Shown here in pieces: positions 4,973 through 64,000 of a stretch of DNA of 64,000 bases. Below the pieces are notes generated by a model, which saw nothing but the letters and a program-made list of their open reading frames with translations, had not been told where the DNA came from and ran no database searches. The position numbers and the translations under genes were made by a program. Numbering within the stretch: position 1 is the first letter of the stretch; each line of letters opens with the position of its first letter. The stretch is from Escherichia coli (lineage in GTDB: Bacteria > Pseudomonadota > Gammaproteobacteria > Enterobacterales > Enterobacteriaceae), in assembly GCF_045037415.1 (NCBI RefSeq), contig NZ_CP173438.1, one strand, 5' to 3'.

Positions 4973-4980
4973 CAGAAATT

Positions 4981-37605: not shown

Positions 37606-37680
37606 TCATATGAGAATAATAATTATTAACAATTGGATGCTACCCGAAACGGGTTTATTTATGCCCGTTTCGGGTTGGTA
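37606..37680 (-). promoter_or_regulatory. irp2 promoter region: Fur-box-like sequence plus YbtA-type inverted repeats
   Basis: gagaataataattattaac resembles the Fur consensus; ctacccgaaacgggtttatttatgcccgtttcgggttgg is a near-perfect inverted repeat. Confidence 0.6.
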
Positions 37681-37757
37681 ACAGGCGGAAAGAACAGAGG
37701 CCCTGATGGGGTATCCGGGCCTCTGTCAGGGAGGAGTTTAGGGGGGCGCGACCCCGG

Positions 37758-38717: not shown

Positions 38718-38883
38718 GACCTGGTTATCTCCCTGTGGCTTAGACCAATGCGGGTATAAATAGAACCGAATGGGGTAGATGAGTTATTGATAATGGTTAT
38801 TATTCACATTAATTCTCAGAACGCCACCCTGAATTGTCGTTTTTGGCGTCCGTAAAAATTCATCAGGAAATTCAGTTACTCCC
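38718..38883. promoter_or_regulatory. Divergent ybtA / ybtPQXS promoter region with Fur-box-like sequence
   Basis: gagttattgataatggttattattcac resembles the Fur consensus; lies between divergently oriented ybtA and ybtP. Confidence 0.5.
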
Positions 38884-40686: not shown

Positions 40687-42475
40687 TCCTGCGGATAACC
40701 TGGCCTGGCGCGTCATCTGGCGCCAGCTTATCTCCAGCGTTGGCAGTCAGGCCAGGATGCTGCGACGCAGTATGCTGGCGCTGTTGCTGGCGGCATTCAT
40801 GCAGGGGATCGCCTTTGCCTGTCTTTATCCGATCATTGATGCGCTGTTACGGGGAGACGCGCCGCAACTTCTTAACTGGGCTATGGCCTTCAGCGTCGCC
40901 GCAATTGTGACGCTGGTGCTACGCTGGTATGGCCTGGGCTTTGAATACCGTGGTCATCTGGCGCAGGCTACCCATGAGTTGCGCCTGCGACTTGGCGAGC
41001 AGTTACGCCGCGTGCCGCTGGAGAAGCTCCAGCGCGGCAGGGCGGGTGAAATGAACGCCTTGCTGCTGGGCAGCGTGGATGAAAACCTCAATTATGTTAT
41101 TGCGATAGCCAATATTTTGCTGCTCACCATTGTCACGCCGCTGACGGCGTCGCTGGCGACATTGTGGATAGACTGGCGGCTGGGGCTGGTGATGTTGCTG
41201 ATCTTCCCTCTGCTGGTGCCGTTTTATTACTGGCGCCGCCCGGCGATGCGGCGACAAATGCAGACGCTGGGGGAAGCGCACCAGCGTCTGAGCGGCGATA
41301 TCGTTGAATTTGCTCAGGGGATGATGGTATTGCGCACCTGCGGCAGCGATGCCGATAAAAGCCGGGCGCTGCTGGCGCATTTCAATGCGCTGGAAAACTT
41401 ACAGACCCGCACTCACCGTCAGGGCGCTGGCGCGACGATGCTGATCGCCAGCGTCGTGGAGTTGGGCCTACAGGTGGTGGTGTTATCCGGGATCGTCTGG
41501 GTAGTGACGGGCACTCTGAACCTCGCCTTTTTGATTGCCGCCGTCGCGATGATTATGCGCTTCGCAGAACCGATGGCGATGTTTATCAGCTACACCTCGG
41601 TTGTGGAACTGATCGCCAGCGCCCTGCAAAGGATTGAGCAGTTTATGGCGATAGCACCGCTTCCCGTCGCAGAGCAAAGCGAGATGCCGGAACGTTACGA
41701 TATCCGCTTTGACAACGTCAGCTATCGCTACGAAGAAGGTGACGGCCACGCGCTTAATCATGTTTCTTTGACGTTCCCGGCAGCCAGTATGAGCGCGCTG
41801 GTGGGTGCCTCCGGCGCAGGCAAAACTACCGTCACCAAACTGTTAATGCGCTATGCCGATCCGCAGCAAGGGCAGATTTCTATTGGCGGCGTCGATATTC
41901 GCCGCCTGACGCCGGAACAGCTCAATAGCCTGATTTCTGTTGTTTTCCAGGATGTCTGGCTGTTTGATGACACGCTGCTGGCGAATATCCGTATCGCGCG
42001 CCCACAGGCGACGCGGCAGGAGGTAGAAGAGGCCGCCCGCGCGGCGCAGTGCCTTGAGTTTATTTCCCGTCTTCCGCAAGGCTGGCTGACGCCAATGGGA
42101 GAGATGGGCGGCCAGCTATCGGGCGGCGAGCGCCAGCGGATTTCCATTGCCAGAGCGTTATTGAAAAACGCGCCGGTCGTTATTCTCGATGAACCGACTG
42201 CCGCGCTGGATATTGAAAGCGAGCTGGCGGTGCAAAAAGCGATCGATAACCTGGTTTACAACCGGACGGTGATTATCATCGCTCACCGTTTATCCACCAT
42301 CGCCGGGGCCGGAAACATTCTGGTGATGGAAGAGGGACAGGTGGTTGAGCAGGGTACTCATGCGCAATTGCTCTCACATCATGGACGTTATCAGGCGCTG
42401 TGGCAGGCGCAAATGGCCGCGCGCGTGTGGCGCGACGACGGGGTTTCCGCGTCTGGAGAGTGGGGGCATGAGTGA
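40673..42475 (+). CDS. ybtQ: ABC transporter permease/ATPase fusion (yersiniabactin uptake)
   Basis: 600-aa ORF with Walker A GASGAGKTT and LSGGERQR; overlaps the ybtP stop. Confidence 0.9.
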   Translation: MKDNNPADNLAWRVIWRQLISSVGSQARMLRRSMLALLLAAFMQGIAFACLYPIIDALLRGDAPQLLNWAMAFSVAAIVTLVLRWYGLGFEYRGHLAQATHELRLRLGEQLRRVPLEKLQRGRAGEMNALLLGSVDENLNYVIAIANILLLTIVTPLTASLATLWIDWRLGLVMLLIFPLLVPFYYWRRPAMRRQMQTLGEAHQRLSGDIVEFAQGMMVLRTCGSDADKSRALLAHFNALENLQTRTHRQGAGATMLIASVVELGLQVVVLSGIVWVVTGTLNLAFLIAAVAMIMRFAEPMAMFISYTSVVELIASALQRIEQFMAIAPLPVAEQSEMPERYDIRFDNVSYRYEEGDGHALNHVSLTFPAASMSALVGASGAGKTTVTKLLMRYADPQQGQISIGGVDIRRLTPEQLNSLISVVFQDVWLFDDTLLANIRIARPQATRQEVEEAARAAQCLEFISRLPQGWLTPMGEMGGQLSGGERQRISIARALLKNAPVVILDEPTAALDIESELAVQKAIDNLVYNRTVIIIAHRLSTIAGAGNILVMEEGQVVEQGTHAQLLSHHGRYQALWQAQMAARVWRDDGVSASGEWGHE

Positions 42476-43748
42476 TGTTCAGTCGAATGTGAAACCGCTG
42501 ACGTTGACGACCGGGCGGGTGATTTTTGCTATTGCCGGCGTCTATGTGACGCAGAGTCTGGTATCGGCGCTGTCTATGCAGTCCTTACCCGCGCTGGTGC
42601 GCGCTGCTGGCGGTTCGCTGGCGCTTGCCGGTGCGACAACCCTGTTTATGCTGCCCTGGGCGCTGAAGTTTATTTGGGCGCCGTGGATCGAGCGCTGGCG
42701 GCTTCCGCCCGGTAGCCAGGAACGCCGTTCCCGCATGTTAATCCTGCGTGGTCAGGTCGCGCTAGCGGCGATCCTGACTATTGCCGCAGCGATTGGCTGG
42801 TTTGGGCGAGAAGGGGGATTCCCCGATACGCAAATCGTCGCGTTATTTGTTCTGTTTATGGTGGCAGGCACGGTCGCCTCCACCATTGATATCGCCAGCG
42901 ACGGCTTTTGTGTCGATCAACTGACCCGCACGGGTTACGGCTGGGGAAACAGCGTGCAGGTCGGCGGCAGCTATCTGGGAATGATGTGCGGCGGCGGGGT
43001 GTTCATGATGCTGTCGGCGGCATCCGGCTGGCCTGTCGCCATGCTGATGATGGCGGTGCTGATTATGGCGCTGTCACTCCCGCTGTGGCGCATTACGGAG
43101 CCGACGCGAACAGCGACTATCCCGCATGTTCCGGCGTTAGGTTATGCGCTAAGGAGGAAGCAGGCGCGCCTGGGCTTACTGCTGGTATTGATGCTGAATT
43201 CAGGCATGCGGTTTGTGCTGCCTCTTCTGGCACCGCTGTTGTTGGATCATGGGTTGAGCATGTCCGCATTGGGCGCGCTGTTCAGCGGCGGCAATATTGC
43301 AGCGGGCATAGCAGGAACGCTGGCCGGCGGATTGCTGATGAAATACACCTCACCCGGCAGAGCGCTGTTGACGGCTTATGGCGTCCAGGGGATCGCGCTG
43401 CTGGCGGTGGTGATGACGCTCATGATGGCGCCGGGTCATCTGCTGCTGCAGATTCTCCAGTGTCTGGTCATTGTCCAGTCCATTTCGCTGGCCTGCGCGC
43501 TGGTCTGTCTTTACGCCACGCTGATGTCGCTTTCATCGCCTTTGCAGGCCGGTGTCGACTTCACCCTCTTTCAATGTACTGATGCGGCAATCGCCATTCT
43601 GGCAGGCGTTATCGGTGGCGTTGTTGCTCAACATTTTGGCTATGCGGCCTGCTTCCTGTTTGCCGGGGCATTCACGTTGCTGGCGGCGTGGGTTGCTTAT
43701 ATCCGGCTGCATTCGGCAAGAGAACTGATGACAAGCGCAATTGATTGA
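42468..43748 (+). CDS. ybtX: MFS-type membrane protein YbtX (Irp8)
   Basis: Start at the ATGAGTGA overlap with the ybtQ stop gives 426 aa; polytopic membrane protein. Confidence 0.85.
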   Translation: MSDVQSNVKPLTLTTGRVIFAIAGVYVTQSLVSALSMQSLPALVRAAGGSLALAGATTLFMLPWALKFIWAPWIERWRLPPGSQERRSRMLILRGQVALAAILTIAAAIGWFGREGGFPDTQIVALFVLFMVAGTVASTIDIASDGFCVDQLTRTGYGWGNSVQVGGSYLGMMCGGGVFMMLSAASGWPVAMLMMAVLIMALSLPLWRITEPTRTATIPHVPALGYALRRKQARLGLLLVLMLNSGMRFVLPLLAPLLLDHGLSMSALGALFSGGNIAAGIAGTLAGGLLMKYTSPGRALLTAYGVQGIALLAVVMTLMMAPGHLLLQILQCLVIVQSISLACALVCLYATLMSLSSPLQAGVDFTLFQCTDAAIAILAGVIGGVVAQHFGYAACFLFAGAFTLLAAWVAYIRLHSARELMTSAID

Positions 43749-43775
43749 TCCGCGAATAACACAGAGAGGTAAGGG

Positions 43776-45080
43776 ATGAAAATCAGTGAATTTCTACATC
43801 TGGCGTTACCAGAGGAACAATGGCTACCGACGATTTCTGGCGTTTTACGCCAGTTCGCAGAAGAAGAGTGTTATGTCTATGAGCGTCAACCCTGTTGGTA
43901 TTTAGGCAAAGGGTGCCAGGCACGGCTGCACATTAATGCCGACGGAACGCAGGCGACATTTATTGATGATGCCGGGGAGCAAAAATGGGCGGTGGATTCC
44001 ATTGCCGACTGCGCGCGTCGTTTTATGGCGCATCCTCAGGTGAAAGGACGTCGGGTATATGGACAGGTTGGGTTCAACTTTGCGGCGCATGCGCGGGGGA
44101 TTGCCTTTAACGCCGGGGAGTGGCCGCTGCTGACGTTAACCGTTCCCCGTGAAGAACTTATTTTTGAAAAGGGAAATGTCACCGTTTATGCGGACTCCGC
44201 CGACGGGTGCCGACGTTTGTGCGAGTGGGTAAAAGAGGCCGGTACAACGACGCAGAACGCACCACTGGCGGTGGATACCGCCCTCAATGGTGAGGCATAT
44301 AAACAACAGGTTGCGCGCGCCGTTGCGGAGATCCGCCGTGGCGAGTATGTCAAAGTGATTGTCTCGCGCGCCATTCCCCTGCCATCGCGGATTGATATGC
44401 CCGCCACGCTGTTATACGGGCGGCAGGCAAACACGCCTGTGCGCTCGTTTATGTTCCGTCAGGAAGGACGCGAAGCGCTGGGCTTTAGCCCAGAACTGGT
44501 GATGTCAGTGACGGGCAATAAAGTGGTCACTGAACCGCTTGCGGGCACCCGCGATCGCATGGGAAACCCGGAGCATAATAAGGCGAAAGAGGCAGAACTG
44601 CTGCACGACAGTAAAGAGGTGCTTGAGCATATCCTTTCTGTCAAAGAAGCTATTGCTGAACTGGAGGCCGTTTGCCAGCCGGGCAGCGTGGTGGTTGAAG
44701 ATTTAATGTCGGTTCGCCAGCGCGGCAGCGTTCAGCATCTGGGGTCTGGCGTGAGCGGTCAGCTTGCGGAAAACAAGGATGCCTGGGATGCGTTTACCGT
44801 GCTGTTTCCGTCGATTACCGCCTCAGGTATCCCTAAAAATGCTGCTCTGAACGCGATTATGCAAATTGAGAAGACGCCGCGAGAGCTTTATTCCGGCGCA
44901 ATCCTGCTGCTGGACGATACGCGCTTTGATGCGGCGCTAGTTCTGCGTTCCGTATTTCAGGATAGCCAGCGCTGCTGGATACAGGCGGGGGCGGGAATCA
45001 TCGCGCAATCTACGCCGGAACGCGAACTGACAGAAACCCGGGAGAAATTAGCGAGCATTGCGCCCTATTTAATGGTGTAG
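43776..45080 (+). CDS. ybtS: Salicylate synthase (chorismate-utilising enzyme)
   Basis: 434-aa ORF with chorismate-binding-family C-terminal region; canonical position next to the island integrase. Confidence 0.9.
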   Translation: MKISEFLHLALPEEQWLPTISGVLRQFAEEECYVYERQPCWYLGKGCQARLHINADGTQATFIDDAGEQKWAVDSIADCARRFMAHPQVKGRRVYGQVGFNFAAHARGIAFNAGEWPLLTLTVPREELIFEKGNVTVYADSADGCRRLCEWVKEAGTTTQNAPLAVDTALNGEAYKQQVARAVAEIRRGEYVKVIVSRAIPLPSRIDMPATLLYGRQANTPVRSFMFRQEGREALGFSPELVMSVTGNKVVTEPLAGTRDRMGNPEHNKAKEAELLHDSKEVLEHILSVKEAIAELEAVCQPGSVVVEDLMSVRQRGSVQHLGSGVSGQLAENKDAWDAFTVLFPSITASGIPKNAALNAIMQIEKTPRELYSGAILLLDDTRFDAALVLRSVFQDSQRCWIQAGAGIIAQSTPERELTETREKLASIAPYLMV

Positions 45081-45273
45081 GAGTAACTGTTTTCTAACCT
45101 CACAACCAGACTGTCCAAAGACAATTGAGTCGCTCTTTGATTCCTCTGTGACTCTATTGTCTTCTTTTGGGATAAAATAGGTGTTTTTCGTCATGAAGTT
45201 GATAAAAGTCTATATAGAACCACCTCTTGTGGAGGTGGTGGTAATTTGCCAGAGTGTGGGATTCGTTAGTATA

Positions 45274-46536
45274 CTATGGGATAAACTTATTTTTACCAAT
45301 TGTATAAGGCGGTGCATAAGATTCTCGGCATGCTTCCAGATAATCCGACCACCACTGCATCATCGCTTTGCGGGCTTCCAGGTGCTCTGCCTTATGAATA
45401 TAAGCCATGCGCACGGTATTGCGCTCCTGATGACTCATCTGGCGTTCTACTGCGTCCTTTGCCCATAAACCCGATTCCATCAGCGCACTGCATGCCATTG
45501 CCCGGAAGCCGTGACCGCAGATATCCTTTTTCGTGTCGTAACCCATCACCCGCAGTGCCTTATTGACCGTGTTTTCACACATTGGCTTATACGGGTTATG
45601 GTCGCCGGGGAAGATCAGTTCATTATTACCGGTGATATCCTTAATCTGTTTCAGAATGGCGATGGACTGTTCTGAGAGGGGGACGATATGCGGCATTCGC
45701 ATTTTTGCCCCGCGGCCGGAATAACGCACGCCAATAATGGGTTCTCGCGTCGCGGGTATCGTCCAGACTCGGTTTGTGAAATCAATCTCTGACCAGCGGG
45801 CGAAACGCAGTTCACTGGAGCGAATGAACACATGCAGCATCAGCAGAACGGCATGCCGGGTCAGTTCACGGCCCTGATGATATGCCCCAATACGTTCAAG
45901 CAGTTCAGGCAGCCGCTCCAGCGGCAGGGCAGGATAGTGCCGTCTGACAGGAGGTGTGGTCACGCCGCCAAGGTTTGCTGCAGGGTTCGTATCGATTAAC
46001 TCCTGATGGACCGCATGGCGCATTATGTTACTCAGGTGCTGCCGTGTGCGGGACGCAACCTCCAGCAGACCTTTTTCCTCGATCCCTTTCAGCAGGTCAA
46101 TGAAATGACGGGGTTTAAGTTCTGATACAGGTAGGTTCCCGATGACCGGAAAGATGTGATTGTTCAGGCTGGCAAGCAGACGGTCGGCGGTGTTCTGCGA
46201 CCATTTCCTGTTACTTTTATGCCACGCCAGCGCCACGTTTTTAAAAACTTTCTCCGGTGTTCGTGAGCCACGTACAGCAGCCCGCTGCTGTACCGGGTTG
46301 ATATTCAGCGCCAGCATTTTACGGATACCTTCACGTTGCTGTCGCGCATCAGACAGGGAGATGGCTGGATAGGTACCCAGCGCAATGCGGGATTCTTTAC
46401 CGCTAATACGGTATTTGAGATACCAGTGGCGGGAGCCACCCGGCTTGACCCGCAGATACAGACCGTGAGAATCGGAGACTTTAAAGGGTTTATCAGAAGG
46501 CTTGAGGGTGCGGATTTTTGCGCTGGTAAGGGACAT
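45274..46536 (-). CDS. int: P4-type tyrosine integrase of the HPI
   Basis: 420-aa ORF (MSLTSAKIRTLKPSDKPFKVSDSHGLYLRV...) with tyrosine-recombinase C-terminal domain, adjacent to tRNA-Asn. Confidence 0.85.
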   Translation of the reverse strand: MSLTSAKIRTLKPSDKPFKVSDSHGLYLRVKPGGSRHWYLKYRISGKESRIALGTYPAISLSDARQQREGIRKMLALNINPVQQRAAVRGSRTPEKVFKNVALAWHKSNRKWSQNTADRLLASLNNHIFPVIGNLPVSELKPRHFIDLLKGIEEKGLLEVASRTRQHLSNIMRHAVHQELIDTNPAANLGGVTTPPVRRHYPALPLERLPELLERIGAYHQGRELTRHAVLLMLHVFIRSSELRFARWSEIDFTNRVWTIPATREPIIGVRYSGRGAKMRMPHIVPLSEQSIAILKQIKDITGNNELIFPGDHNPYKPMCENTVNKALRVMGYDTKKDICGHGFRAMACSALMESGLWAKDAVERQMSHQERNTVRMAYIHKAEHLEARKAMMQWWSDYLEACRESYAPPYTIGKNKFIP

Positions 46537-46697: not shown

Positions 46698-46773
46698 TGG
46701 CTCCTCTGACTGGACTCGAACCAGTGACATACGGATTAACAGTCCGCCGTTCTACCGACTGAACTACAGAGGA
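46698..46773 (-). tRNA. asnT: tRNA-Asn (GUU); HPI attachment tRNA
   Basis: Fourth copy of the 76-nt tRNA-Asn sequence, about 160 bp from the island integrase gene. Confidence 0.9.
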
Positions 46774-46873: not shown

Positions 46874-47671
46874 TTAATGAACATTCGTCGCCGAAAACGA
46901 GTCTGTATCATTAGCGTGATGCAGTCTCTGCAAAGGATCTTGTTGATAAAATTGACAGAAACGTTGCCACAATGAAGGGAAACGAGGAGCAAAAAGTTCT
47001 GGGGCGCTAAAGAAATATTCAGAAAGTACGGCAAAACATTCAGCAGGATCACTGGCAGCATAAGCATCAATGCTCGCCGCATTCTCACCAACTAATTCGA
47101 TTTCTTCCTGAATGTTGTTCATTGCAGCATGAAGATCGTGTTCCCAGCCAGCAACCTCACGCAACGAAATAAAGGGAACTCCGCTGGCGCGATCGCCGTT
47201 ACGGGTGTCCAGCTTATGAGCGACTTCATGAATAATCAGGTTAAAACCAGAAGCATCAAAAGAATCTTGTATATCCAACCAGTTCAAAACGATAGGCCCT
47301 TGCTGCCAGCTCTGACCTGACTGAACAATACGTTGGTTATGCACCAGACCGATATCGTCTTCCCATTCATCATCGACCACAAATGGCGCAGGATAAATTA
47401 AGATTTCATGAAAACCATCCAGCCATTCCAGTCCTAACTCCAGAACGGGCAGGCAAAATAGAAGTGCTATCCGGCAGCTTCTTAATGAATTCAGCTCAAA
47501 GCCCTGTAAAGGAACAAGCCGTTTTTGCTGTAAAAAACGTTCGGCAAGAGCGACCAATTTGCTTTGTTCCTGTTCTGTCAGACACGTTAAAAGGGGGATC
47601 GATAGTGCTTCCTGCCAGGGAAGGGCAGTTTGATGTGCTGATTCTTGTACTTTCCAGGGCCACTTAATCAT
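46874..47671 (-). CDS. mtfA: Mlc titration factor A (zinc-dependent peptidase-like)
   Basis: Start at [20 protein letters not shown] gives 265 aa; HEVAH zinc motif. Confidence 0.85.
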
Positions 47672-47764
47672 CGTTTTGCTCGCAAACTCGTCACTTGAAC
47701 AAAATTGCACGGACAGGGACTGTTAAAATGCCAAATTTCCTGGCATCATGGCAACCATCTGAAC

Positions 47765-47855
47765 GGAGAGATGCCGGAGCGGCTGAACGGACCGGTTCTC
47801 GAAAACCGGAGTGGGGGCAACTCCACCGGGGGTTCAAATCCCCCTCTCTCCGCCA
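47765..47855 (+). tRNA. serU: tRNA-Ser, long variable arm (serU-like)
   Basis: About 91 nt, ggagagatgccggagcggctgaacgg...ggttcaaatccccctctctccgcca; acceptor stem pairs and ends in CCA; integrase immediately downstream. Confidence 0.85.
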
Positions 47856-47907
47856 AAATTCAATCACTTACACATCATTAAGTCAGTGACAAAAATCACA
47901 CTTGGAA

Positions 47908-48933
47908 TTACTTGGAATATTTTCTTGGAATATTTTCAGGTAACGGGACATCAAGTGTTGGTGAAACTTTAACCTTCCTGTCATAGATTAGCACTTGCCC
48001 CTCGGTTTTGTGACCAGAGAAAAGTTGCTTATCCCGGCTGCTTCCTTCATAGTCTGAAATTCCTTTCGCCTTCAGATCATGAAAGGTGAAGTCGGTTAAA
48101 ATACCTGAAATTTTGCCTGCGCGATTTCTTGCTTCTACCCACATTTCGTTAAAGCCTTTGTACATATATCGGTTGCCATATTGATTGCTGATTACATAGA
48201 CGGATGCTGGTAACTGTTTTGCTTTTTCGATCGCCGCCTGTAATCGTGGACTCCATGCTTTTATCTGTTTTTTCCCTGTTTTCCCTTGCTGGATAAAGAT
48301 CCCGTCGTTTCCAATCTGCTCCCATTTCAGTGATAACACATCGGAAACCCTCGCTGCACACAGATAGGCAATTTCCATTGCGATAAAAACAGGAAGAGGT
48401 GCAACGCTTAATACTGCCTGGTATTCTTTGTCGGTTACATATCGTTCGCGGTTTTTGGCCTTGAATTTACTTACACCTGCACATGGGTTAGCCTTCACGT
48501 ACCCTCGCTCATATCCCCAACTGTAAACGCGGGACATACTGCTTTTTTCATGGTTGGCTTGCGTTTTGCTCTGTTCCCCTCTTTTGTCCATGTATCGACG
48601 GATGTGTTCTGGTTTTATGGAATCCGCTGGTACCTTACCGAATACGGCAAGCAACTTTTTTTGATGTTGCAGATAATCTTTTTGTGTTCTTGGGCTAAGG
48701 TCACTGTAACAGGCGCTGGCGAGGAATTTTTCCCACAAGCGACCGAATGTCATTGCACGATCGCGATTATTTACAGTTTCCTCATACTTTTTCCATAAAG
48801 CAGCTAAACCATCCTTGATGGCGGTTAGTGTTACAGATTCTCTGGATGTTGGTTTCCATACATAACTATATTTATTTGGGTATACATTTGGAGGTAATTT
48901 TTCGTGTTCAGGATTTTTCCTTCGTCTTCCCAT
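47908..48933 (-). CDS. int: Phage tyrosine integrase
   Basis: 341-aa ORF directly next to the tRNA-Ser 3' end, with tyrosine-recombinase C-terminal region. Confidence 0.85.
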   Translation of the reverse strand: MGRRRKNPEHEKLPPNVYPNKYSYVWKPTSRESVTLTAIKDGLAALWKKYEETVNNRDRAMTFGRLWEKFLASACYSDLSPRTQKDYLQHQKKLLAVFGKVPADSIKPEHIRRYMDKRGEQSKTQANHEKSSMSRVYSWGYERGYVKANPCAGVSKFKAKNRERYVTDKEYQAVLSVAPLPVFIAMEIAYLCAARVSDVLSLKWEQIGNDGIFIQQGKTGKKQIKAWSPRLQAAIEKAKQLPASVYVISNQYGNRYMYKGFNEMWVEARNRAGKISGILTDFTFHDLKAKGISDYEGSSRDKQLFSGHKTEGQVLIYDRKVKVSPTLDVPLPENIPRKYSK

Positions 48934-49136
48934 CAGATCGCACCAAAATTCGGCTCTACCTCGCGTGGTGGTAAAGTTTTATTGCAGGTAAATAGATCCC
49001 GGCTGACAATCGGTTTGCCACTACGATTGGTATAGAACGGAAGCCCGTTTTCCATTAACCATTTTCGCTGGTGACTTGCATATTTGCAGCCCGTTAATAT
49101 TAGCAATTCATCTTTGGTTAAAAATAAGCTGCTCAT
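48933..49136 (-). CDS. xis: Putative excisionase
   Basis: 67-aa ORF immediately upstream of int, typical int-xis pairing; family not verified. Confidence 0.5.
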   Translation of the reverse strand: MSSLFLTKDELLILTGCKYASHQRKWLMENGLPFYTNRSGKPIVSRDLFTCNKTLPPREVEPNFGAI

Positions 49137-49194
49137 AGCTATATCTCATAACCGCCGCTAACTATATGCGGTTAGCGGCGATCAGGGTTGAACA

Positions 49195-51669
49195 TTAAAA
49201 ATCAGCCTGACTCGGGATCAGTTTTTGCCAGATAGCTGAAACGTATTTTGCCTGGTAACGGGCGTCATCAAGTGCATTATGGCGCTCACCTTCGAATGGA
49301 ATAGCCGTTCTGGCATCGAAGTCTATGGCTTTCCCCAGCTCAACGATTGTGCGTACATCGCGATCGTTGTAGTAACGCCACGGGCAGGGGATCCCCTGCC
49401 GTTCGTATGAACGGCGCAAAATTGTGTTGTCGAAGTTGGCTCCATTTCCCCAGACCTGAACAAAAAATTCACCGGAGTTTTCGTCGATAAATTCCCGCAA
49501 TTGTAACAGTGCATCATCTAACGGGATTTCATCGGTCATAATGGCAGATTGCGCTTCGCGTGATTGCTTAAGCCACCATTTAATGGTGCCACGATCAATG
49601 ACTCCGCCAGCAGTATCCATATCGATGGTCTTACTAAATTCCGGCCCCATATCTCCGGTTTGCGGATCGAAAAATATTGCACCTATTGAGATAAGCGGGG
49701 CATCGGGATTTTTTCCCATGGTTTCAAGGTCGATCATCATGTGGTGCCACATTCTGCTGGTGGATGTGATTTTATGATGACCGTTCATGGTAATTAAGGG
49801 ATTTGCCGTCCCGCCAGCTTCATTATCGCTGGTGTGATGCTGATTACCGCCAGCGTTCTCTTTGTGCGGATATTCAACACGTTCCATTTCCTCCGGATCA
49901 TTTTCCTGAACTTCAACCTGATTCTCTTCATTGAATGTTTCCTGGTATGTTGCGTCACCCATCACCGCGCCACAATCAGGGCAGTTGCCGCCGCCGGTCT
50001 GACCGCAGGCGGTGCAGACTTTTTCCGGTTCCTGTTGCGCTACTGGTTCAGGTTGTTTCGTTTCTGGCTCGTTTTGTAACGCATTTGGGCTGTTTTGTTC
50101 CGCTTTCTGGCCGTTCTGTTCCGTTTCTTGCTGGTTCTGATTCACTGAATCGCGGGTTTCAATCCCCTTCACCCATTTCGGATCATTCGGGTCGCTAATC
50201 CCTGCAACAAATTCACCACGTGATACAGCAAGCAACTTATTGGCGTCAGGCTGGCTGATATTGGCTGCCTGCATAATTTTGTTTACTTCGTCAGCGGTAA
50301 CTTTTATCGGCTCTGGTTGTGCGATCGTGTCAGATGCACCAGTATTTTGTTGTGAACCTGAGTACGTGCCGTTTTTACGTGCGAAGTATTCCTCTTTTGT
50401 GATTTCCGTAGCTCCCAGGGCCAGTGCTTTTTCCAGACCAGAAAGTTTGTTTGCGCGACCGTATTTTTCGCCGTCCTTATCGGTGAAAAGGAAGTAGAAC
50501 GGTCCCTCACGCTCTACAGATGGTTCGTCTTCCACTTCGCATTCGGTTTTTTCGTTGTCCGGCATTGCCGTTTCCACTGCATCAGTTTCTGGTACTGGTG
50601 ACGGGAGAGTACCAGCTGTGCCCTGATTTGTTCCTTCGTCATCTTCAAACACGCCCTTGGTAGTCAGGTATTCAGTGATGTATTTGTTCAGTGCTACGGG
50701 ATCTTTGTGAATGTCGATCGGACGCTCACGGACAAGGCCAAAAATAGTCTGACGGTCGTAGCGAACGGCATCGGGTTGTTTGCGCATTGATGCGGAAATG
50801 CGCTTCCAGTCTTCGCGATCTTTGTCGATAACTTCATTTTTTGCCCAGCGATGGATGCTGCCGTCAATGTTTCCGGTATCAATATCGCCAGGCCAGAGAG
50901 CGTAGGCCAGTTCTTCATCCAGCGTTTTCCATGTCTGCTTGTATTCGCGACAAATGGCGGCAGTGACTGGGTTGATTTTTCCTGCTGAGTTTTCAGTGTT
51001 CTGTTGATTGACTCTGGCGCTGGCGAGATCAACAACAGACGTGTATTTTCCAGTCTCTTTGCGCTCTGCGTCCTGCCGTTTTTTCCAGTTACGTAATTCA
51101 GCCTGAATTTCGGGCCATTTGGCACCCGGATTACATTTGTGTTTAACCCATCCGATAGCGAACAGTTTGCGTTCCGGATACATAGCGTTAATTTCAGGCG
51201 TTTTCATCAGTGCTTCAACGATATGCCCGTCAAAGGTAGCAACGTCTTCCTGCAGTAATTCCTGCGCGTCAATCGCCATATCAACGGTGATGTTTTCACA
51301 TGTACCGAACTTAACCAGGACCGCGTTCTGTACTTCAAGGGACAGCTTGTCAAAATTGACGTTCATCGGATCGGATTCTGGTTCGACCGGAATAAAGGAA
51401 GCGGATTCCTCATCCCAGCGGTTTTCCTGCATATATTCAGCATCCCAGGAATCGAGGGCAGGGCGGGGTATACCGGGTTTATCCTCGCAAACAAGAAATT
51501 TATAAGCGCAGTCCTGAGCAGCCGGATAATGTTCCAGGAATTGCCAGTGAAATTTTGCGCGGGCGCGACGTTCATCACCGGCTTCAATGGCAGTGGCTAC
51601 AGCGACGGCACCTTCTTCCTTTATTGCCTGTTCGTCCGGAATGGCGGCGCAAATAAAGACTTTACTCAT
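49195..51669 (-). CDS. Large prophage exonuclease (relatives are often annotated exodeoxyribonuclease VIII); C-terminal DEDD-type 3'-5' exonuclease domain
   Basis: 824 aa; C-terminal MMIDLETMG ... WGNGANFDNTIL ... HNALDDA resembles DnaQ-like motifs; central C-x2-C ... C-x2-C zinc-ribbon (CTACGQTGGGNCPDCG). Confidence 0.55.
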   Translation of the reverse strand: MSKVFICAAIPDEQAIKEEGAVAVATAIEAGDERRARAKFHWQFLEHYPAAQDCAYKFLVCEDKPGIPRPALDSWDAEYMQENRWDEESASFIPVEPESDPMNVNFDKLSLEVQNAVLVKFGTCENITVDMAIDAQELLQEDVATFDGHIVEALMKTPEINAMYPERKLFAIGWVKHKCNPGAKWPEIQAELRNWKKRQDAERKETGKYTSVVDLASARVNQQNTENSAGKINPVTAAICREYKQTWKTLDEELAYALWPGDIDTGNIDGSIHRWAKNEVIDKDREDWKRISASMRKQPDAVRYDRQTIFGLVRERPIDIHKDPVALNKYITEYLTTKGVFEDDEGTNQGTAGTLPSPVPETDAVETAMPDNEKTECEVEDEPSVEREGPFYFLFTDKDGEKYGRANKLSGLEKALALGATEITKEEYFARKNGTYSGSQQNTGASDTIAQPEPIKVTADEVNKIMQAANISQPDANKLLAVSRGEFVAGISDPNDPKWVKGIETRDSVNQNQQETEQNGQKAEQNSPNALQNEPETKQPEPVAQQEPEKVCTACGQTGGGNCPDCGAVMGDATYQETFNEENQVEVQENDPEEMERVEYPHKENAGGNQHHTSDNEAGGTANPLITMNGHHKITSTSRMWHHMMIDLETMGKNPDAPLISIGAIFFDPQTGDMGPEFSKTIDMDTAGGVIDRGTIKWWLKQSREAQSAIMTDEIPLDDALLQLREFIDENSGEFFVQVWGNGANFDNTILRRSYERQGIPCPWRYYNDRDVRTIVELGKAIDFDARTAIPFEGERHNALDDARYQAKYVSAIWQKLIPSQADF

Positions 51670-51748
51670 TTTGTTTTACCTCATTACAGATTTAAGGGTG
51701 AACAAATCCCTGCCATTGCTGGCATATAAAAATGAAACTGGATATTAA

Positions 51749-51958
51749 TTACGGCGCTGTTTTTAATCCTGCCGGGATTTCGTTATTGTCCATGTGAATA
51801 ACTTTATCGACCGGATAACAGTTGCCGGGAATTTTCTGTTCCGCTGCGGCAGCCATGCATTCTTTCATTGAGTTGTACATGCCGGTGATTGCATCAAGCG
51901 ACTCACCAGTATTGAGATATACAGTCAGAATGAGTATGAATAATGTGTTCATCGCCAC
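51749..51958 (-). CDS. Small membrane protein, possibly ydfD-like
   Basis: 69-aa ORF with N-terminal hydrophobic helix, directly downstream of the dicB-like gene as ydfD is in Qin. Confidence 0.35.
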   Translation of the reverse strand: MAMNTLFILILTVYLNTGESLDAITGMYNSMKECMAAAAEQKIPGNCYPVDKVIHMDNNEIPAGLKTAP

Positions 51959-52137
51959 TCTCCGAAAATACCGAGTTTAAGAAGGGCAATTCTGGAGAGT
52001 ATGGAATTGTCATTCAGCAGGTAGGGTTCATATTTTCTCATATTGATTGCATCCTCGGTGAAATCCCTGTTACTGAGCAGAACACCAATATTAAAGCACC
52101 CGTCAGACGTATTAACGTTTGGTAGTGACGTTTCCAT
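51949..52137 (-). CDS. dicB: DicB-like cell-division inhibitor
   Basis: 62-aa ORF; METSLPNVNTSDGCFNIGV...FTEDAIN resembles recalled Qin DicB (62 aa); located downstream of the DicF homolog. Confidence 0.55.
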   Translation of the reverse strand: METSLPNVNTSDGCFNIGVLLSNRDFTEDAINMRKYEPYLLNDNSILSRIALLKLGIFGEWR

Positions 52138-52147
52138 TATCGCGTCC

Positions 52148-52705
52148 TCAACAATGAATTTTTAGCAATTGCTCCACAGTCATATTTTTAATTGCGCTCC
52201 GGTTTACAAGAGTCCATCCTTGTTTCTCCAGATAAAACCGGAAGGTATCCAGGGTGCAGACCATTGCGCCGTCAGGAACGGTTTCAGTGAATTTGATATT
52301 GCCGTGTTCGTCGAGACGGATAACCAGGGTGCGTCCGTCCCCGTGAATCATTTTGTCGGGAGACGGGGCGTTATTCTGGCGCAGTTCTTCCTCCATGCGA
52401 TCGAACTCAGCGATGTAGGCTTCTTTGAAAGTTGCGGCTTTTTTACCTGTGAACCCCATCACCAGGAAAACGAAGCCGTTTTTGGTGATTTGGTACATTG
52501 GGAGTTTGCGCCCGGTTGAGTCGGTGTATTCGCTCGACACAAAATTGTGCTCAGTGAATTTTGCTGAACAGTCCAGATTGCGAATTTTATCCAACACTCG
52601 TTCGTGGCGTTTGCCAAAGAACTCGGCGATCGCAACAGACGTAGTGACAGCGCGACCATTTTCGATGGTTACGTCAGGGTGAGAAAGGGTAAGGATAGTA
52701 GCCAT
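52148..52705 (-). CDS. rha: Rha-family phage regulatory protein
   Basis: MATILTLSHPDVTIENGRAVTTSVAIAEFFGKRHERVLDKIRNL...GFTGKKAATFKEAYIAEFDRMEEEL matches the Phage_pRha N-terminal domain; track ORF 52148-53002 has a probable non-coding N-terminal extension. Confidence 0.7.
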   Translation of the reverse strand: MATILTLSHPDVTIENGRAVTTSVAIAEFFGKRHERVLDKIRNLDCSAKFTEHNFVSSEYTDSTGRKLPMYQITKNGFVFLVMGFTGKKAATFKEAYIAEFDRMEEELRQNNAPSPDKMIHGDGRTLVIRLDEHGNIKFTETVPDGAMVCTLDTFRFYLEKQGWTLVNRSAIKNMTVEQLLKIHC

Positions 52706-53179
52706 GATGGCAGCCTCCGCGATGAATTTGATTAACTCACCACCGAGGTTTTCCACGACCATAAGGGTGGTGAGACGTACAGGGGTGGAAATACCGGTCA
52801 TCACGGAACCCGGCCAGCCTTGCGGCTGCCCTGCACGCCCCACCATAATGCGAATGTGGCTGTGCTTAACGCATAAAAAAACCGCCTGAGCGCGGTTATG
52901 CGCCGTGAATGATTTCGGGTTTCCACGCCCGGCACCCGTTTTATGAGGTGCAGGTGCACTATAATTCCACCCGTTCTGGTTTTCAATAGCTACATTCAAC
53001 ATTTTCTCTACCTTTCATCACCGAAGTGAACTTTGTTGATGCGGTGCCTGGTGCCTCCAGGTGACGTTAACCAGTTAACAATTAACGCCGGATACAGAGA
53101 ATCCACCCATAACACTGTTTTTGGTTTTAACTGTTCCGCGTGCGCTTAGCCGCATTCACCGCATCACAAAATTCACTTT

Positions 53180-53237
53180 AAAAAGGGCGGCAGAGCAGTC
53201 ACGGAGTAGAACTGATACCGCCAAAAGTCACCAGAAA
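53180..53237 (-). ncRNA. dicF: DicF-like small RNA
   Basis: Minus-strand sequence tttctggtgacttttggcggtatcagttctactccgtgactgctctgccgcccttttt differs at about 2 positions from the DicF sequence as recalled and ends in a terminator hairpin plus U-run; lies in a 540-bp region with no ORF. Confidence 0.7.
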
Positions 53238-53540
53238 ATTGATAACAGAGGGCGTTGCAGCGGGGTTGTCACTTAAGCGTATGGTCAACCTGACAACCCG
53301 GTGTCCTCAACGGGGGAAGGAATAACCCCGCCATACTTACCGCCGCGCCATTTCGCGGATTGCCACAACCGGAAGCGCACGGTCGACGAAAATTTAACGA
53401 CTACCTACAGAGAGACGAACTTCGCCGTGCGCTTTCGCGTTATGCCCTGACTTTTCAGGGATATATCCTTTTCAGTAAACTGTCAGTGCCGGATTCTTAT
53501 CCGTGTCCGGCGCACGCACTCTACCTCACCTGTGAATAAA

Positions 53541-53927
53541 TTAATGATTAATTGATATTTTGTTGTTTGATTCAACTTTCCCATCGGATGTGTGATGCTT
53601 TAAATCACAGGAATTAATACTGCTTGCTGTAAAATGATTTTCAAGGGGAGCTATTCGAATCCCTTTCTTTTTCATTAACAAGCCAAATCCTTTATTAATG
53701 ATGTCCATTAATTCCAGGAAGTATTTTTCATGTAAATCCTGGTTATCAGAGAGCTGCTTCTCTTCGCACAGACCGATAAAGGCACGACGAACGTTACCGG
53801 ATATAGTATCGATGGTTTCTTTTTCTACGGTACTCAGGTCAAGAGTCGCCAGTTGGGAACGAACTATATTCGCTGCCATTTCCTGGAATGGTACTGGTAA
53901 ATCTTTAAATTCCATCGTCAACCTCAT
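53541..53927 (-). CDS. Hypothetical protein in the ydfB/ydfC position of the dicB operon
   Basis: 128-aa ORF between ydfA and dicF; function unknown. Confidence 0.4.
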   Translation of the reverse strand: MRLTMEFKDLPVPFQEMAANIVRSQLATLDLSTVEKETIDTISGNVRRAFIGLCEEKQLSDNQDLHEKYFLELMDIINKGFGLLMKKKGIRIAPLENHFTASSINSCDLKHHTSDGKVESNNKISINH

Positions 53928-61781: not shown

Positions 61782-62774
61782 GTGCGGGTATTACTTCGAC
61801 CTGTTCTGGTACCGGAACTCGGGCTGGTGATCGTTAAGCCGGGCCGTGAATCCATGCCGGTATTCCACAATACCCGGGTACTGGTGGAGCCGGAACCGAA
61901 AAGCATGCGTAATCTGCCGTCCGGGGTCGTTCCTGCCGTTCGCCAGCCGCTGGCGGAGGATAAATCATTACTGCCATTTTTCAGCGACGAACGAGTGATT
62001 CGTGCTGCTGGTGGCGCTGGCGCATTGTCTGACTGGTTACTGCGCCATGTTAAATCCTGCCAGTGGCCGCACGGCGATTATCACCACAGTGAAACCGTCA
62101 TTCACCGTTATGGTGCCGGCGCAATGGTGTTGTGCTGGCACTGCGATAACCAGCTGCGCGATCAGTTCACGGAACGGCTGGAATCAATGGCAACGGATAA
62201 CTGTGCCCGCTGGGTGTTGTCTGTTGTGCGTCGGGATCTCGGTTTTGATGATAGTCACGTTGTGACAATGCCGGAACTGTGCTGGTGGCTGATTCGTAAT
62301 GACCTGGCGGATGCCTTACCGGAAAGTGCAGCCCGTAAGGCACTGAGATTACCGAAGCCTGTTGTGCCATCTGTCACCCGGGAAAGTGACCTTGTGCCTT
62401 CAGTTCCTGCCACCAGCATCATCCAGGATAAAGCGAAAAAGGTGCTGGTACTGAAAGTGGATCCGGAGTCGCCGGAGTCTTTTATGTTACGCCCAAAACG
62501 TCGCCGCTGGGTTAATGAAAAGTACACGCGCTGGGTTAAGACGCAGCCGTGCGCATGTTGTGGAAAGCCTGCTGATGATGCCCACCACCTGATAGGTCAC
62601 GGTCAGGGTGGAATGGGTACAAAAGCGCATGACCTCTTTGTGTTGCCTTTGTGCAGAAAGCATCACGACGAGCTGCATGCGGATACCGTGGTATTTGAAG
62701 AGAAGTATGGCTCCCAGTTGGAGCTGATATTTCGTTTTATTGATCGTGCGCTGGCAATTGGCGTGCTGGCGTAA
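61782..62774 (+). CDS. DUF968-family prophage protein (YdfU-like)
   Basis: 330-aa ORF with a C-terminal Cys/His-rich segment (CACCGKPADDAHHL...CRKHHDELH); position upstream of the Q-like gene as ydfU is in Qin. Confidence 0.55.
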   Translation: MRVLLRPVLVPELGLVIVKPGRESMPVFHNTRVLVEPEPKSMRNLPSGVVPAVRQPLAEDKSLLPFFSDERVIRAAGGAGALSDWLLRHVKSCQWPHGDYHHSETVIHRYGAGAMVLCWHCDNQLRDQFTERLESMATDNCARWVLSVVRRDLGFDDSHVVTMPELCWWLIRNDLADALPESAARKALRLPKPVVPSVTRESDLVPSVPATSIIQDKAKKVLVLKVDPESPESFMLRPKRRRWVNEKYTRWVKTQPCACCGKPADDAHHLIGHGQGGMGTKAHDLFVLPLCRKHHDELHADTVVFEEKYGSQLELIFRFIDRALAIGVLA

Positions 62775-62788
62775 GTGGAGAACTCTAA

Positions 62789-63367
62789 ATGATTAATCCT
62801 TCTGAAATTGGCAAAACGGGTGAAATGGTTCGTCTTCGTACTCTGGAAAGTATCTGGGTTCAGGGGAAGCTCCGCATGTGGGGGCGTTGGTCTTATATCA
62901 GTGGAGGGACTAGCGGTAACATGTTTAACCAACTGCTTGTATCCAGCAAAATTACCAAAACTGCAATCAACGATGCGCTGCGCCGTATGAAAAAGTCAGG
63001 CATTACGAAACCAGAGCTCGAAGCTTATTTGCGCGAAATACTCAACAGTAAAAACAAAAGTAGTCTGGCGTTTTGCTCGGACGATGAAGGCCTGAAGATT
63101 GACGGTGTGATCGCCTCGGTGCTGATGAATAATGATTACCGTTCTCTATACGGTGTGATTGTTGGCCGGTATTGTCTGCGTAAGAGCAAGTTGCAAATGG
63201 CCAATGAGCTTCATATTAAACATCCTGACTGGGCGCTCATTACCTGTCGCCGCCGAGTTGACACATGGATAAGTTTGGCCGAATCGCTCCTGTACGCTCC
63301 ACTATGTGATGCGTTTGGCACAAATAGCGACAGATTTAAATTGCAAAGTGAGCAAGAAAGTGCTTGA
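62789..63367 (+). CDS. Putative late-gene antiterminator Q
   Basis: 192-aa ORF with the ...LRMWGRW... segment recalled from Q-family antiterminators; followed by a promoter-like region and a strong terminator as expected for qut/tR'. Confidence 0.5.
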   Translation: MINPSEIGKTGEMVRLRTLESIWVQGKLRMWGRWSYISGGTSGNMFNQLLVSSKITKTAINDALRRMKKSGITKPELEAYLREILNSKNKSSLAFCSDDEGLKIDGVIASVLMNNDYRSLYGVIVGRYCLRKSKLQMANELHIKHPDWALITCRRRVDTWISLAESLLYAPLCDAFGTNSDRFKLQSEQESA

Positions 63368-63418
63368 ATTGTGATAAGCTCGGGACGAAAAGCGAACTGA
63401 GCAACATAATAGTAAGAA

Positions 63419-63441
63419 CCCGCCATTGTGCGGGTTTTTGC
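63419..63441 (+). terminator. Rho-independent terminator (tR'-like) downstream of Q
   Basis: Hairpin acccgccattgtgcgggt followed by ttttt. Confidence 0.5.
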
Positions 63442-63506
63442 GTTTAGGAAAGGCTTGCCAAAAAGAATGATGTTATAGTTTTCGAAAAAAATGCAGGAGA
63501 ATAAAA

Positions 63507-64000
63507 ATGCTCTGTGGAGGTCTTTCTTTGCGAGACTTTATGCATAAACTGCATAAAGTTTTGCGACCAACGGGTCCAGTTGTTTCTATGGAACTGTTAT
63601 TTGGACGTGAAAAACATGTAACCGATCTCGAATTGGCGCTTTATGCTACAGGTCGGCATGCTTTCATTTATGGTGATCGCGGAGTAGGAAAGACATCCTT
63701 AGCGCAAACTGTTGCTTTTAAGCTGCAGGAAGATGCTGAACCTATTTTGGTTGGCTGCGAGAAAGAATCCACTTTTTCAAGTGTCATGAATGACATTATT
63801 TTGCGAGGCACACCTCAGGATAAGAAAATCGATACACAGGGATGGAGCTTTGGCTTAAATGTGGCTGGAATTGGTGGTATCAATGCTGGTCAAAATCAAA
63901 AATATAATTATCCAGAACTGAAAATTGACTCAGTTTCTGCAGCCGTTCGGGCGTTGCAATTTTTAACTAAAGTTCACTCAAAGATTCCTTATATAGTTAT
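63507..64000 (+). CDS. P-loop NTPase (AAA-type ATP-binding protein), N-terminal part; truncated by the window end
   Basis: ATG at 63507 preceded by AGGAGA; Walker A GDRGVGKTS; no stop before the window end; not in the ORF track. Confidence 0.6.
   Translation, partial: MLCGGLSLRDFMHKLHKVLRPTGPVVSMELLFGREKHVTDLELALYATGRHAFIYGDRGVGKTSLAQTVAFKLQEDAEPILVGCEKESTFSSVMNDIILRGTPQDKKIDTQGWSFGLNVAGIGGINAGQNQKYNYPELKIDSVSAAVRALQFLTKVHSKIPYIV

Follow-up and report, generated by a model that had tools for sequence, protein, structure and literature searches.

An apparently complete mosaic prophage with a Qin-like early-left operon in serU of ST131-type Escherichia coli

Relatives of the serU prophage

The Escherichia phage mEp460_ev081 (LR597641.1), which is temperate and comes from infant faeces, is a functional phage that carries dicB, dicF, dicAC and rem (PMC10448788). 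Its left arm shows the same gene order as an element found in serU at positions 47856-64000 of the window, the 64,000-nt stretch of E. coli DNA analysed here, so this family, preliminarily described as one known mostly from cryptic remnants, is not limited to remnants. In addition to int and xis, mEp460_ev081 encodes an exonuclease of about 823 aa (88.6% identity to that of the element), a YdfD-like protein, DicB (61%), a YdfA-like protein (90%) and counterparts of the 135-aa repressor (53%), the Cro-like protein (74%), the YdaT-like protein (92.5%), HokD (100%), Rem (92%) and the DUF968 protein (66%). It differs from the element by its integrase and attachment site, by the absence of the Rha/isrK/C4 insertion, by another cassette at the orf128 position (38% over 53 aa) and by a different O/P region, RusA with another Q and a different virion module; it covers 36% of the DNA at 91% identity.

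Salmonella phage ST64B, which is naturally defective and presumably also integrates at serU, has the nearest relative of the integrase (59% identity over 328/329 residues, the ST64B Int being 329 aa), an excisionase, Sb29, with 35% identity (E=9e-9) and a virion module of about 76% DNA identity, whereas its early region and cargo genes are different. The Shigella flexneri phages SfV, SfII, SfIV and SfI resemble the right arm of the element, with 94-97% DNA identity in the part of the right-arm query (45-58%) that could be aligned to each. In SfV, on the other hand, the repressor is of the CI type (UmuD-like), the early genes are different, gtr O-antigen genes are present and the int is its own; with respect to SfV, the element shows an exchanged tape measure, major capsid protein (MCP) and tail-fibre C-terminus and lacks the gtr genes. 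Finally, the serU prophage of E. coli Esc5 (NZ_OZ369446.1) has the same attL junction, the same integrase and a full exonuclease (823 aa), and window positions 47600-52162, which include the host sequence preceding serU as well as int, xis, exonuclease and dicB, are 91% identical to it, but it harbors a Qin-type ydfB/ydfC block (98% to Qin), RusA, another Q, tRNA genes, iss and a different late region. The nearest GenBank 'phage' records (the vB_Eco...R-number series) were considered as evidence of viability and rejected, because they contain host genes and have the appearance of predicted prophage regions; a literature search on the names and accessions of these records (vB_EcoM-606R7 and others) returned nothing.

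Extent, attachment sites and integration genes

Positions 47856-64000 are the left 16 kb (left arm) of a prophage of about 40.1 kb in serU. The window ends inside the element, and the right arm is known from identical genomes (PGAP-annotated L001). The prophage sequence is 100% identical, bar one base in serU, in at least 25 complete ST131-type E. coli genomes. Among 5426 complete genomes, 52 contain at least 80% of it. Given this identity to ST131-type chromosomes and the PGAP gene list of the whole element, it is very probably a structurally complete mosaic temperate prophage of about 40.1 kb, integrated in serU by a ST64B-type tyrosine integrase. Its gene content, gene order, intactness and attachment sites were observed, and it is a clade-restricted ST131 prophage of ordinary structure. 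The early region belongs to the Qin/mEp460 type, and gene order and strands follow the lambdoid plan, with int-xis adjoining the attachment site at the distal end of the leftward early operon. A named serU prophage was sought in the ST131 literature and none was found; M27PP1 and M27PP2 were rejected as candidates, being different islands.

The serU gene, a tRNA-Ser(CGA), lies at 47765-47855 on the plus strand (ARAGORN; alignment to THO-003), and its 3' 63 nt (47793-47855) are the phage-supplied attL core. The attR is a 62-nt repeat of attL (L001 42285-42346) that spans serU from the anticodon stem to the 3' end and carries two compensatory mismatches in the variable arm; a phage-borne copy of these 62 nt would have rebuilt the tRNA after insertion into the 3' part of serU. 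The serU of the window contains an extra T at 47796/47797 that produces an 8-nt anticodon loop, a sequence found on no metagenome contig, versus at least 120 contigs with the normal one.

The integrase gene (47908-48933, minus strand; Pfam Phage_integrase, tblastn) encodes 341 aa, and its stop codon is 52 nt from attL. Tandem TTGGAAT(A/T)TTTTC repeats at 47900-47939 overlap the 3' end of int, and the same motif occurs about 100 bp inside attR (L001 42173-42183 and 42237-42249); these repeats are likely to be Int arm-type sites, a putative binding role suggested by the sequence. PGAP flags a frameshift in int, owing to a tandem repeat of 13 bp that follows the catalytic tyrosine. Decay of int was rejected as its explanation, since the flag affects only the last ~10 codons and the exact 341-aa form, found on at least 1000 contigs, is the common natural one; comparison of the C-terminus showed the catalytic ...GHKTEGQVLIYDRK motif to be intact. 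The adjacent xis (48933-49136, minus strand) encodes an excisionase-like DUF4224 protein of 67 aa (Pfam).

Leftward operon and relation to Qin and Rac

The presence of a serU prophage with a Qin-like early-left operon and a hok-rem-DUF968 block, as first described, is borne out by blastn and BLASTP, and all the features then named were found where they had been placed, including a complete int-xis and O/P. After xis, the leftward operon (all genes on the minus strand) contains an 824-aa exonuclease gene (49195-51669; phrog_2082 over the full length), whose product combines a YdfE-like N-terminus, a RecE-like middle region (37% to RecE residues 278-592) and a Rv2179c-like 3'-5' exonuclease domain at the C-terminus (Pfam). 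The proposed contrast with a disrupted ydfE is correct: K-12 YdfE is an IS2-truncated copy, 87.5% identical to residues 1-256 of the exonuclease, and the match stops exactly at the IS2E boundary. It is followed by a YdfD-like DUF1482 small lysis protein (51749-51952; Pfam, 65% to K-12 YdfD) and by the 62-aa DicB cell-division inhibitor (51949-52137; Pfam DicB 111.7 bits, 64% to K-12 DicB). A putative Rha-family regulator/antirepressor-like ORF (52148-53002; 284 aa; Pfam Phage_pRha and Phage_ASH, start-codon survey) sits on a 864-bp insertion (52163-53026) relative to Qin, as defined by blastn junctions, and an isrK-like RNA (52875-52951) and a C4-like RNA (52763-52850), both detected with Rfam, overlap its annotated N-terminus. 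This isrK/C4-Rha module within the dicBF operon is similar to immI of P1. A 'partial dicB' annotated by PGAP (window ~53032-53115) was considered as a possible dicB duplication and rejected: the annotation corresponds to Qin sequence that lies upstream of dicB, at the border of the 864-bp insertion, and does not represent a second gene. The DicF sRNA (53185-53236) is full length (Rfam RF00039, 71.5 bits, gathering score 48), with flanks 93% identical to Qin (blastn). Last come orf128 (53541-53927; 128 aa, or 124 aa from Met5; phrog_6937, no assigned function) and a YdfA-like DUF1391 gene (53927-54079; Pfam, 90% to K-12 YdfA).

DicA/DicC, YdfA, DicF, DicB, YdfD, the YdfE N-terminus, HokD, Rem and YdfU are common to the element and Qin in the same order, and the dicBF/immunity module (DicF, DicB, DicA/DicC) is of Qin type, within colinear blastn blocks. 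The Qin order reported earlier thus reflects a real colinearity, but a patchy one: six blastn blocks account for 4619 of 16401 bases (28%), at 74-93% identity. Unlike the element, Qin is located between ydfJ and rspB and not at serU, its IntQ is only 22% identical to Int over 236 aa, its QuuQ/YdfT gives no BLASTP match to the Q-like DUF1133 protein, and it lacks O/P and virion genes. It also has relBE in place of the sok leader, an IS2-cut exonuclease, a truncated YdaT-like gene (ydfX), and ydfB/ydfC in place of orf128. Although orf128 does sit at the ydfB/ydfC position, as proposed, the implied homology fails: BLASTP gave no match to YdfB or YdfC at E<=10, and the PHROG families are different (phrog_6937/1363 versus phrog_2061 and phrog_1744 for YdfB/YdfC). 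By these comparisons orf128 is a replacement cassette that is non-homologous to both, and ydfB and ydfC, instead of being fragments, are full-length members of their own families that occur intact in other complete prophages. The relation to Rac is similarly weak: matches are confined to the RecE middle region, YdaF (86%), YdaW (60%) and a 29-aa stretch of YdaT, and the set of recET, kilR, sieB and racR/ydaS/ydaT/ydaUV is not found.

These comparisons bear on the idea that the element is an ancestral, undecayed form of Qin (and Rac), of whose larger ORFs ydfB, ydfC and ydfE would all be fragments. The IS2E-cut YdfE fits it, as do YdfX, whose 96 aa correspond to only the N-terminal half of the YdaT-like protein, the occurrence here of a sok leader that K-12 hokD lacks, and the colinear gene order; ydfE and ydfX of K-12 are confirmed as truncated genes, and Qin hokD is confirmed to have lost its sok leader. 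It is nevertheless improbable. Little of the DNA aligns to Qin, orf128 is unrelated to YdfB/YdfC, Int and the Q-like protein are unrelated to those of Qin or very distant, and Rac shows three partial matches only. Additionally, in the Esc5 prophage the ydfA-to-ydfE block is 98% identical to that of Qin and ydfB/ydfC are intact, which makes this prophage far closer to the progenitor of Qin. For ydfB/ydfC, where the idea of fragments is corrected, and for Rac, the sequence comparisons largely refute the ancestral form; as applied to Qin, the term overreaches, since neither the integrase nor Q is that of Qin, just 28% of the DNA aligns to Qin and hardly anything is in common with Rac. The element is better described as a mosaic relative.

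Rightward early region

All genes of this region are on the plus strand. A 183-aa YdaT/CII-like protein (54982-55533; sequence and PHROG comparison) is followed by an O-like replication initiator with HTH and DnaT domains (55505-56545; Pfam, PHROG). A repeat search found 5-6 ACACCCAAAAACGG iterons within the O-like gene (55791-55987), and this stretch is the probable replication origin. The P-like helicase loader (56538-56999; Pfam Phage_lambda_P, phrog_109) has 153 aa as annotated, shorter than lambda P, but its ORF is open from 56334 and could encode 221 aa. Next to it, a nin-like block of small accessory genes (57033-60253; PGAP of an identical genome, Pfam, PHROG) comprises DUF1627 (YdaW-like), DUF977, DUF4406, Ea22-like, DUF7167 and hypothetical proteins. 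The hok/sok locus (60643-60967) is complete, with a sok/mok leader at 60643-60814 (Rfam sok 106.7 bits) and hokD at 60812-60967; HokD is 100% identical to that of K-12, and homology to Qin starts only at 60798.

Downstream of Rem, the region encodes a YdfU-like DUF968/HNH protein (61782-62774; Pfam, 71% to YdfU) and a Q-like antiterminator of the DUF1133 type (62789-63367; phrog_753 'anti-termination protein Q-like', Pfam Phage_antitermQ 35.5 bits). The last gene, of which the window includes only the 5' part (63507-64000), encodes an AAA/STAND-like ATPase moron of 463 aa (PGAP of L001; Pfam, PHROG). PADLOC, run on ten candidate accessory proteins, reported no defence system.

Right arm and completeness of the element

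Beyond the window, L001 shows holin, endolysin and Rz followed by SfV-like virion genes, ending at the 62-nt attR, so that, as in the lambdoid plan, the Q-type gene is upstream of the holin-endolysin-Rz cassette and the virion genes seen in the identical genomes. L001 has full-length counterparts of 20 of the 22 SfV virion genes, plus holin, endolysin and HNH; identity to the SfV counterparts ranges from 24 to 100%, with 17 of the 20 at 81% or more. The SfV-type myovirus set is present: terminase, portal, protease, capsid, Mu-like sheath, tube and baseplate. The objection that the right arm might lack morphogenesis and lysis genes fails, since int-xis, O/P and the right arm are complete. A satellite, phage-inducible island or remnant that borrows the virion genes of a helper, for which nothing speaks beyond the window end hiding the right arm, has a negligible probability and is refuted by the gene content of the identical genomes, where a full terminase, portal, capsid, sheath, tube, baseplate, fibre and lysis set precedes attR.

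Across 54 ORFs no IS and no internal stops were found, so the marks of a cryptic prophage (lost modules, IS, truncated essential genes) are absent, and the sole flags, both examined, are those of PGAP on the int 3' end and on the tail-fibre gene, which it splits. A single uninterrupted ORF of 791 aa encodes the tail fibre and includes a Peptidase_S74 chaperone domain. A separate gene for tail-fibre assembly is missing, and a stretch of 730 bp before attR is devoid of genes. Many complete-looking lambdoid prophages are defective, and this one might look intact and yet be defective, fixed in a ST131 subclade and producing no infectious particles, a possibility to which we give limited credit. 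It agrees with the PGAP pseudogene flags, the lack of an assembly gene, the gene-free stretch, the short P gene, the defective nature of ST64B as the nearest Int relative, and the near-clonal identity across the 25 or more genomes, which fits vertical inheritance. However, the int flag concerns the last ~10 codons of a form common in nature, the tail-fibre ORF is open throughout and includes a chaperone domain of its own, and every other gene is open and full length against SfV.

For the structurally complete mosaic prophage there is little new here, since a functional phage with dicB, dicF, dicAC and rem has already been published, and its significance beyond annotation is small. For ST131 workers it provides a complete map of attachment sites, predicted operators and probable origin, and for the DicBF field one more intact context, besides mEp460_ev081, for Rem-dependent induction.

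Immunity switch and induction

The immunity region has the lambdoid arrangement of divergent repressor and cro genes with predicted operator repeats (2+3) flanking the repressor gene. The 135-aa repressor (54287-54694, minus strand) is of the short DicA type (NCBIfam DicA 241.6 bits, cut-off 101; 63% identical to DicA) and consists of an HTH only (Pfam HTH_3), without the S24 peptidase domain. Divergently, a 75-aa DicC/Cro-like regulator (54771-54998, plus strand) shows 84% identity to DicC (Pfam P22_Cro). A repeat search found TTAG-N6/7-CTAA palindromes on both sides, two upstream of the leftward operon (54156-54210) and three between the repressor and cro-like genes (54696-54761), which are predicted to be the left and right operators by analogy with dicBp and lambda OL (PMC10448788). 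Rem (61184-61435, plus strand; 83 aa) is 93% identical to K-12 Rem, an antirepressor of DicA (PMC10448788).

From this organization we infer the regulation as follows, and actual virion production is likewise a prediction. The DicA-like repressor would maintain lysogeny, and derepression would depend on the antirepressor Rem or on the bistable switch flipping, not on RecA cleavage. DicB and DicF may then block host division and receptor function during phage replication, which would start from the origin inside O, and the late genes would be turned on by Q. A tentative extension is that the element is a viable phage of pandemic ST131 in which the DicA/DicC switch, Rem, DicF, DicB and the isrK/C4-Rha module all work in the lytic context native to them. 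If so, induction would be SOS-independent, with Rem or a stress (heat or urea, for example) as its driver, and the phage would be a tractable system for the natural Rem trigger and the phage-side role of DicB/DicF.

DicA lacks RecA-cleavage features, and it is doubtful that mitomycin C induces a prophage with a DicA-type repressor (PMC10448788). A LexA box (CTGT-N8-ACAG) was sought near rem and is absent, and the features of a SOS-inducible CI-type immunity are not found. Both the short DicA-type repressor and the lack of a LexA box ahead of rem speak against a simple induction by mitomycin C. The single CTGT-N8-ACAG within the prophage lies inside O, at chance level.

Chromosomal Setting and Extent of the Prophage

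The prophage observed at serU is confirmed, and it lies in an E. coli chromosome in the order yersiniabactin island at asnT, mtfA, serU (47765–47855) and phage DNA. Window 47600–64000 is found at 100% identity over 16400 of 16401 bases in at least 25 complete genomes, mostly labelled ST131, and at least 80% of it is present in one place in 52 of 5426 complete genomes. The right arm was read in one of the matching genomes, strain THO-003 (region L001; window coordinate = L001 + 45600 right of serU), and the right-arm content described here is taken from that region and not from window DNA. The right attachment site was located there, beside zinT: the 3'-terminal 62 nt of serU, starting from the 5' strand of the anticodon stem, are repeated at L001 42285–42346, indicating an element of about 40.1 kb and a tRNA rebuilt from a phage-borne copy. 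The window covers the left 16.1 kb, and its edge falls within an ATPase gene after the Q-like gene. attL and attR differ at two positions, both in the variable arm and compensatory (GTGGGG...CTCCAC in attL and GTAGGG...CTCTAC in attR). The same phage-type attL junction occurs in about 780 complete genomes, which makes serU a busy site.

The yersiniabactin high-pathogenicity island (window ~27000–46536) includes its own P4-type integrase (45274–46536) and uses tRNA-Asn 46698–46773, directly left of mtfA and serU, so that adjacent tRNA genes each hold a mobile element. Three further tRNA-Asn genes lie at 2572–6880.

Integration Module

A complete int-xis, as claimed in the preliminary description, is present: a 341-aa Int (47908–48933, minus strand) with Pfam integrase domains shows 59% identity over 328/329 residues of ST64B Int (Salmonella phage), and a 67-aa DUF4224 protein shows 35% identity to the ST64B excisionase. 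PGAP calls int frameshifted, and the source is a 13-bp tandem repeat (GAAAATATTCCAA twice) in the last ~10 codons, 3' of the GHKTEGQVLIYDRK catalytic motif and beyond the end of ST64B Int. Decay of int was considered on the basis of this flag and rejected, since the exact 341-aa form is found on at least 1000 public contigs and the "unshifted" 345-aa form on one. Tandem TTGGAAT(A/T)TTTTC motifs overlap the int stop codon (47900–47939), and their copy-number variation gives rise to the PGAP call; copies of the TTGGAAT motif also lie ~100 bp inside attR (L001 42173–42249), and these repeats are probably arm-type Int sites.

Early Region and Comparison with Qin and Rac

In a blastn comparison, K-12 Qin (region L002) aligns in six colinear blocks that together span 4619 of the 16401 bases, with identities of 74–93%. 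At the protein level, identity to the Qin counterparts is 100% for HokD, 93% for Rem, 90% for the YdfA-like protein, 84% for the DicC-like protein, 71% for the DUF968 protein (YdfU), 65% for the DUF1482 protein (YdfD), 64% for DicB and 63% for the DicA-like protein, and DicF has a full-length Rfam match (71.5 bits). Conversely, Int is only 22% identical to Qin IntQ, and the DUF1133 protein, with Q-like PHROG matches and a weaker Pfam Phage_antitermQ match, does not match QuuQ. The hok/sok/mok locus is complete (60643–60967), with a sok/mok leader before hokD (Rfam sok, 106.7 bits), whereas in K-12 Qin homology begins just 14 nt 5' of hokD, the place of the leader being taken by relBE.

The proposal that K-12 ydfE is a fragment of the exonuclease gene is borne out: the 824-aa protein matches YdfE at 87.5% over residues 1–256, and homology stops at L002 20845, the exact IS2E edge. 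YdfX (96 aa, L002 17347–17637), absent from the earlier list, is another fragmentary Qin gene, corresponding to the N-terminal half of a YdaT/CII-like protein of 183 aa (window 54982–55533; 89% identity). The 128-aa ORF, on the other hand, is not a counterpart of ydfB and ydfC: it matches neither product even at E ≤ 10 and is assigned to phrog_6937/1363, while YdfB and YdfC are assigned, at nearly full length, to phrog_2061 and phrog_1744. A relation to Rac also fails, as only the middle of RecE (37%), YdaF, YdaW and a small piece of YdaT are shared.

The exonuclease (49195–51669) is itself a chimera, in which a YdfE-like N-terminus is followed by a middle with 37% identity to residues 278–592 of RecE, which lie outside its catalytic part, and by an Rv2179c-like DEDD 3'-5' exonuclease domain that replaces the RecE nuclease; it has no RecT-like partner gene. 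An 864-bp insertion relative to Qin lies within the dicBF operon, ~20 nt upstream of dicB (52148–53026, minus). It carries an isrK-like RNA (52875–52951) ending in a stem-loop plus U7 (intrinsic terminator), a C4 antisense-like RNA (52763–52850) and a Rha-domain gene. Both RNA matches are strong, and the annotated 284-aa Rha ORF reads through them; translation probably begins at Met81 or Met100. Pfam Phage_ASH matches residues 14–109, corresponding to the first ~80–100 codons of this ORF and spanning both RNA matches, and the family may in part be a model of a translated RNA gene. The downstream sequence GGTGGTGAG complements the 3' strand of C4, an arrangement resembling P1 immI.

The repressor (135 aa, with an HTH as its sole domain) matches NCBIfam "transcriptional repressor DicA" over its full length (241.6 bits, cut-off 101). 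TTAG-N6/7-CTAA palindromes are found three times between the repressor and Cro-like genes and twice upstream of the leftward operon. The full O/P module is also present: the O-like gene combines an HTH with a DnaT domain and contains 5–6 ACACCCAAAAACGG iterons (55791–55987), and a P-like helicase loader lies 3' of it. The layout is lambdoid: in the probable mode of action the DicA-like repressor would hold both early promoters, the leftward operon (the PL analogue) would yield DicF, DicB, the YdfD-like protein, exonuclease, Xis and Int, and the rightward operon would lead to replication functions and Q. In Qin, DicA is devoid of RecA-cleavage features, the DicA/DicC switch is flipped by heat and urea, and Rem is an antirepressor, dicBp being derepressed 165-fold (Ragunathan et al., PMC10448788). 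Given these data, the 93% identity of Rem and the lack of a LexA box upstream of rem, induction would probably be Rem- or stress-driven and SOS-independent.

Right Arm and Cargo

The right arm does not lack the late genes, and the completeness of the element is supported: L001 holds holin, GH24 endolysin, Rz and HNH genes, followed through the virion set by terminase, portal, protease, capsid, connectors, sheath, tube, tape measure and a Mu-like baseplate. Twenty of the 22 virion proteins of the Shigella flexneri phage SfV have full-length counterparts, 17 of these at 81–100% identity, with exchanged variants of the capsid (68%), orf13 (44%) and tape measure (24%). The tail fibre, split by PGAP ("partial stfP" and "tail fiber domain protein"), is in fact one open 791-aa ORF; its Peptidase_S74 intramolecular chaperone domain explains why no separate assembly gene is present. 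A 463-aa AAA/STAND-like P-loop ATPase gene (phrog_6841; window 63507–64000, cut; L001 17907–19298), with no PADLOC system match, is placed between the Q-like and holin genes. In lambdoid phages this slot is a cargo site, e.g., for stx. A DUF2441 gene (L001 20780–21388) follows the lysis genes.

Relation to Known Phages

The functional temperate phage mEp460_ev081 was already known to carry dicB, dicF, dicAC and rem (PMC10448788), and its left-arm order is the same as here, including a full-length exonuclease at 88.6% identity. HannyBb, Tritos, Evi and PhiR42_1 (records named as phages) and EHEC prophages (PPompW) share 26–51% of the left arm at ~90–93% identity. Judged by this sharing, the element adds another mosaic to those built from two familiar pools of modules, with its early region of Qin/mEp460 type, its virion genes of SfV type and an ST64B-type integrase at serU, and its novelty is low. 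The interpretation in the preliminary description holds for ydfE, int-xis, the O/P module and completeness and not for ydfB/ydfC or Rac; that the family is mainly known from remnants is an outdated view, and "ancestral" is wrong.

Another serU prophage, in strain Esc5 (NZ_OZ369446.1; region L006, 20117–40141), is a different element with the same integrase. Its ydfA-ydfB-ydfC-dicF-dicB-ydfD block is 98% identical to Qin and adjoins a full 823-aa exonuclease gene, which indicates that ydfB and ydfC, both intact there, are genuine small genes and that the Esc5 element is much nearer to the progenitor of Qin than the present one; as an intact Qin-like phage it is a much better candidate. It also carries RusA, Q, tRNA-Ile, tRNA-Arg, iraM and iss.

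Finally, serU in the window has an extra T at 47796–47797 relative to at least 25 otherwise identical genomes, enlarging the anticodon loop from 7 to 8 nt (CCGGT-TCTCGAAA-ACCGG); ARAGORN reports tRNA-??? with no assignment, and the gene falls short of the gathering score of the Rfam tRNA model. The extra T was found in none of the metagenome contigs, of which at least 120 have the normal sequence, and among complete genomes it is common to 10, one clonal "Esc" series with a different serU prophage, and to no others. Either the assembly has a homopolymer error here, or this non-essential tRNA carries a rare private mutation; +1 frameshift suppressors classically have an anticodon loop of 8 nt.
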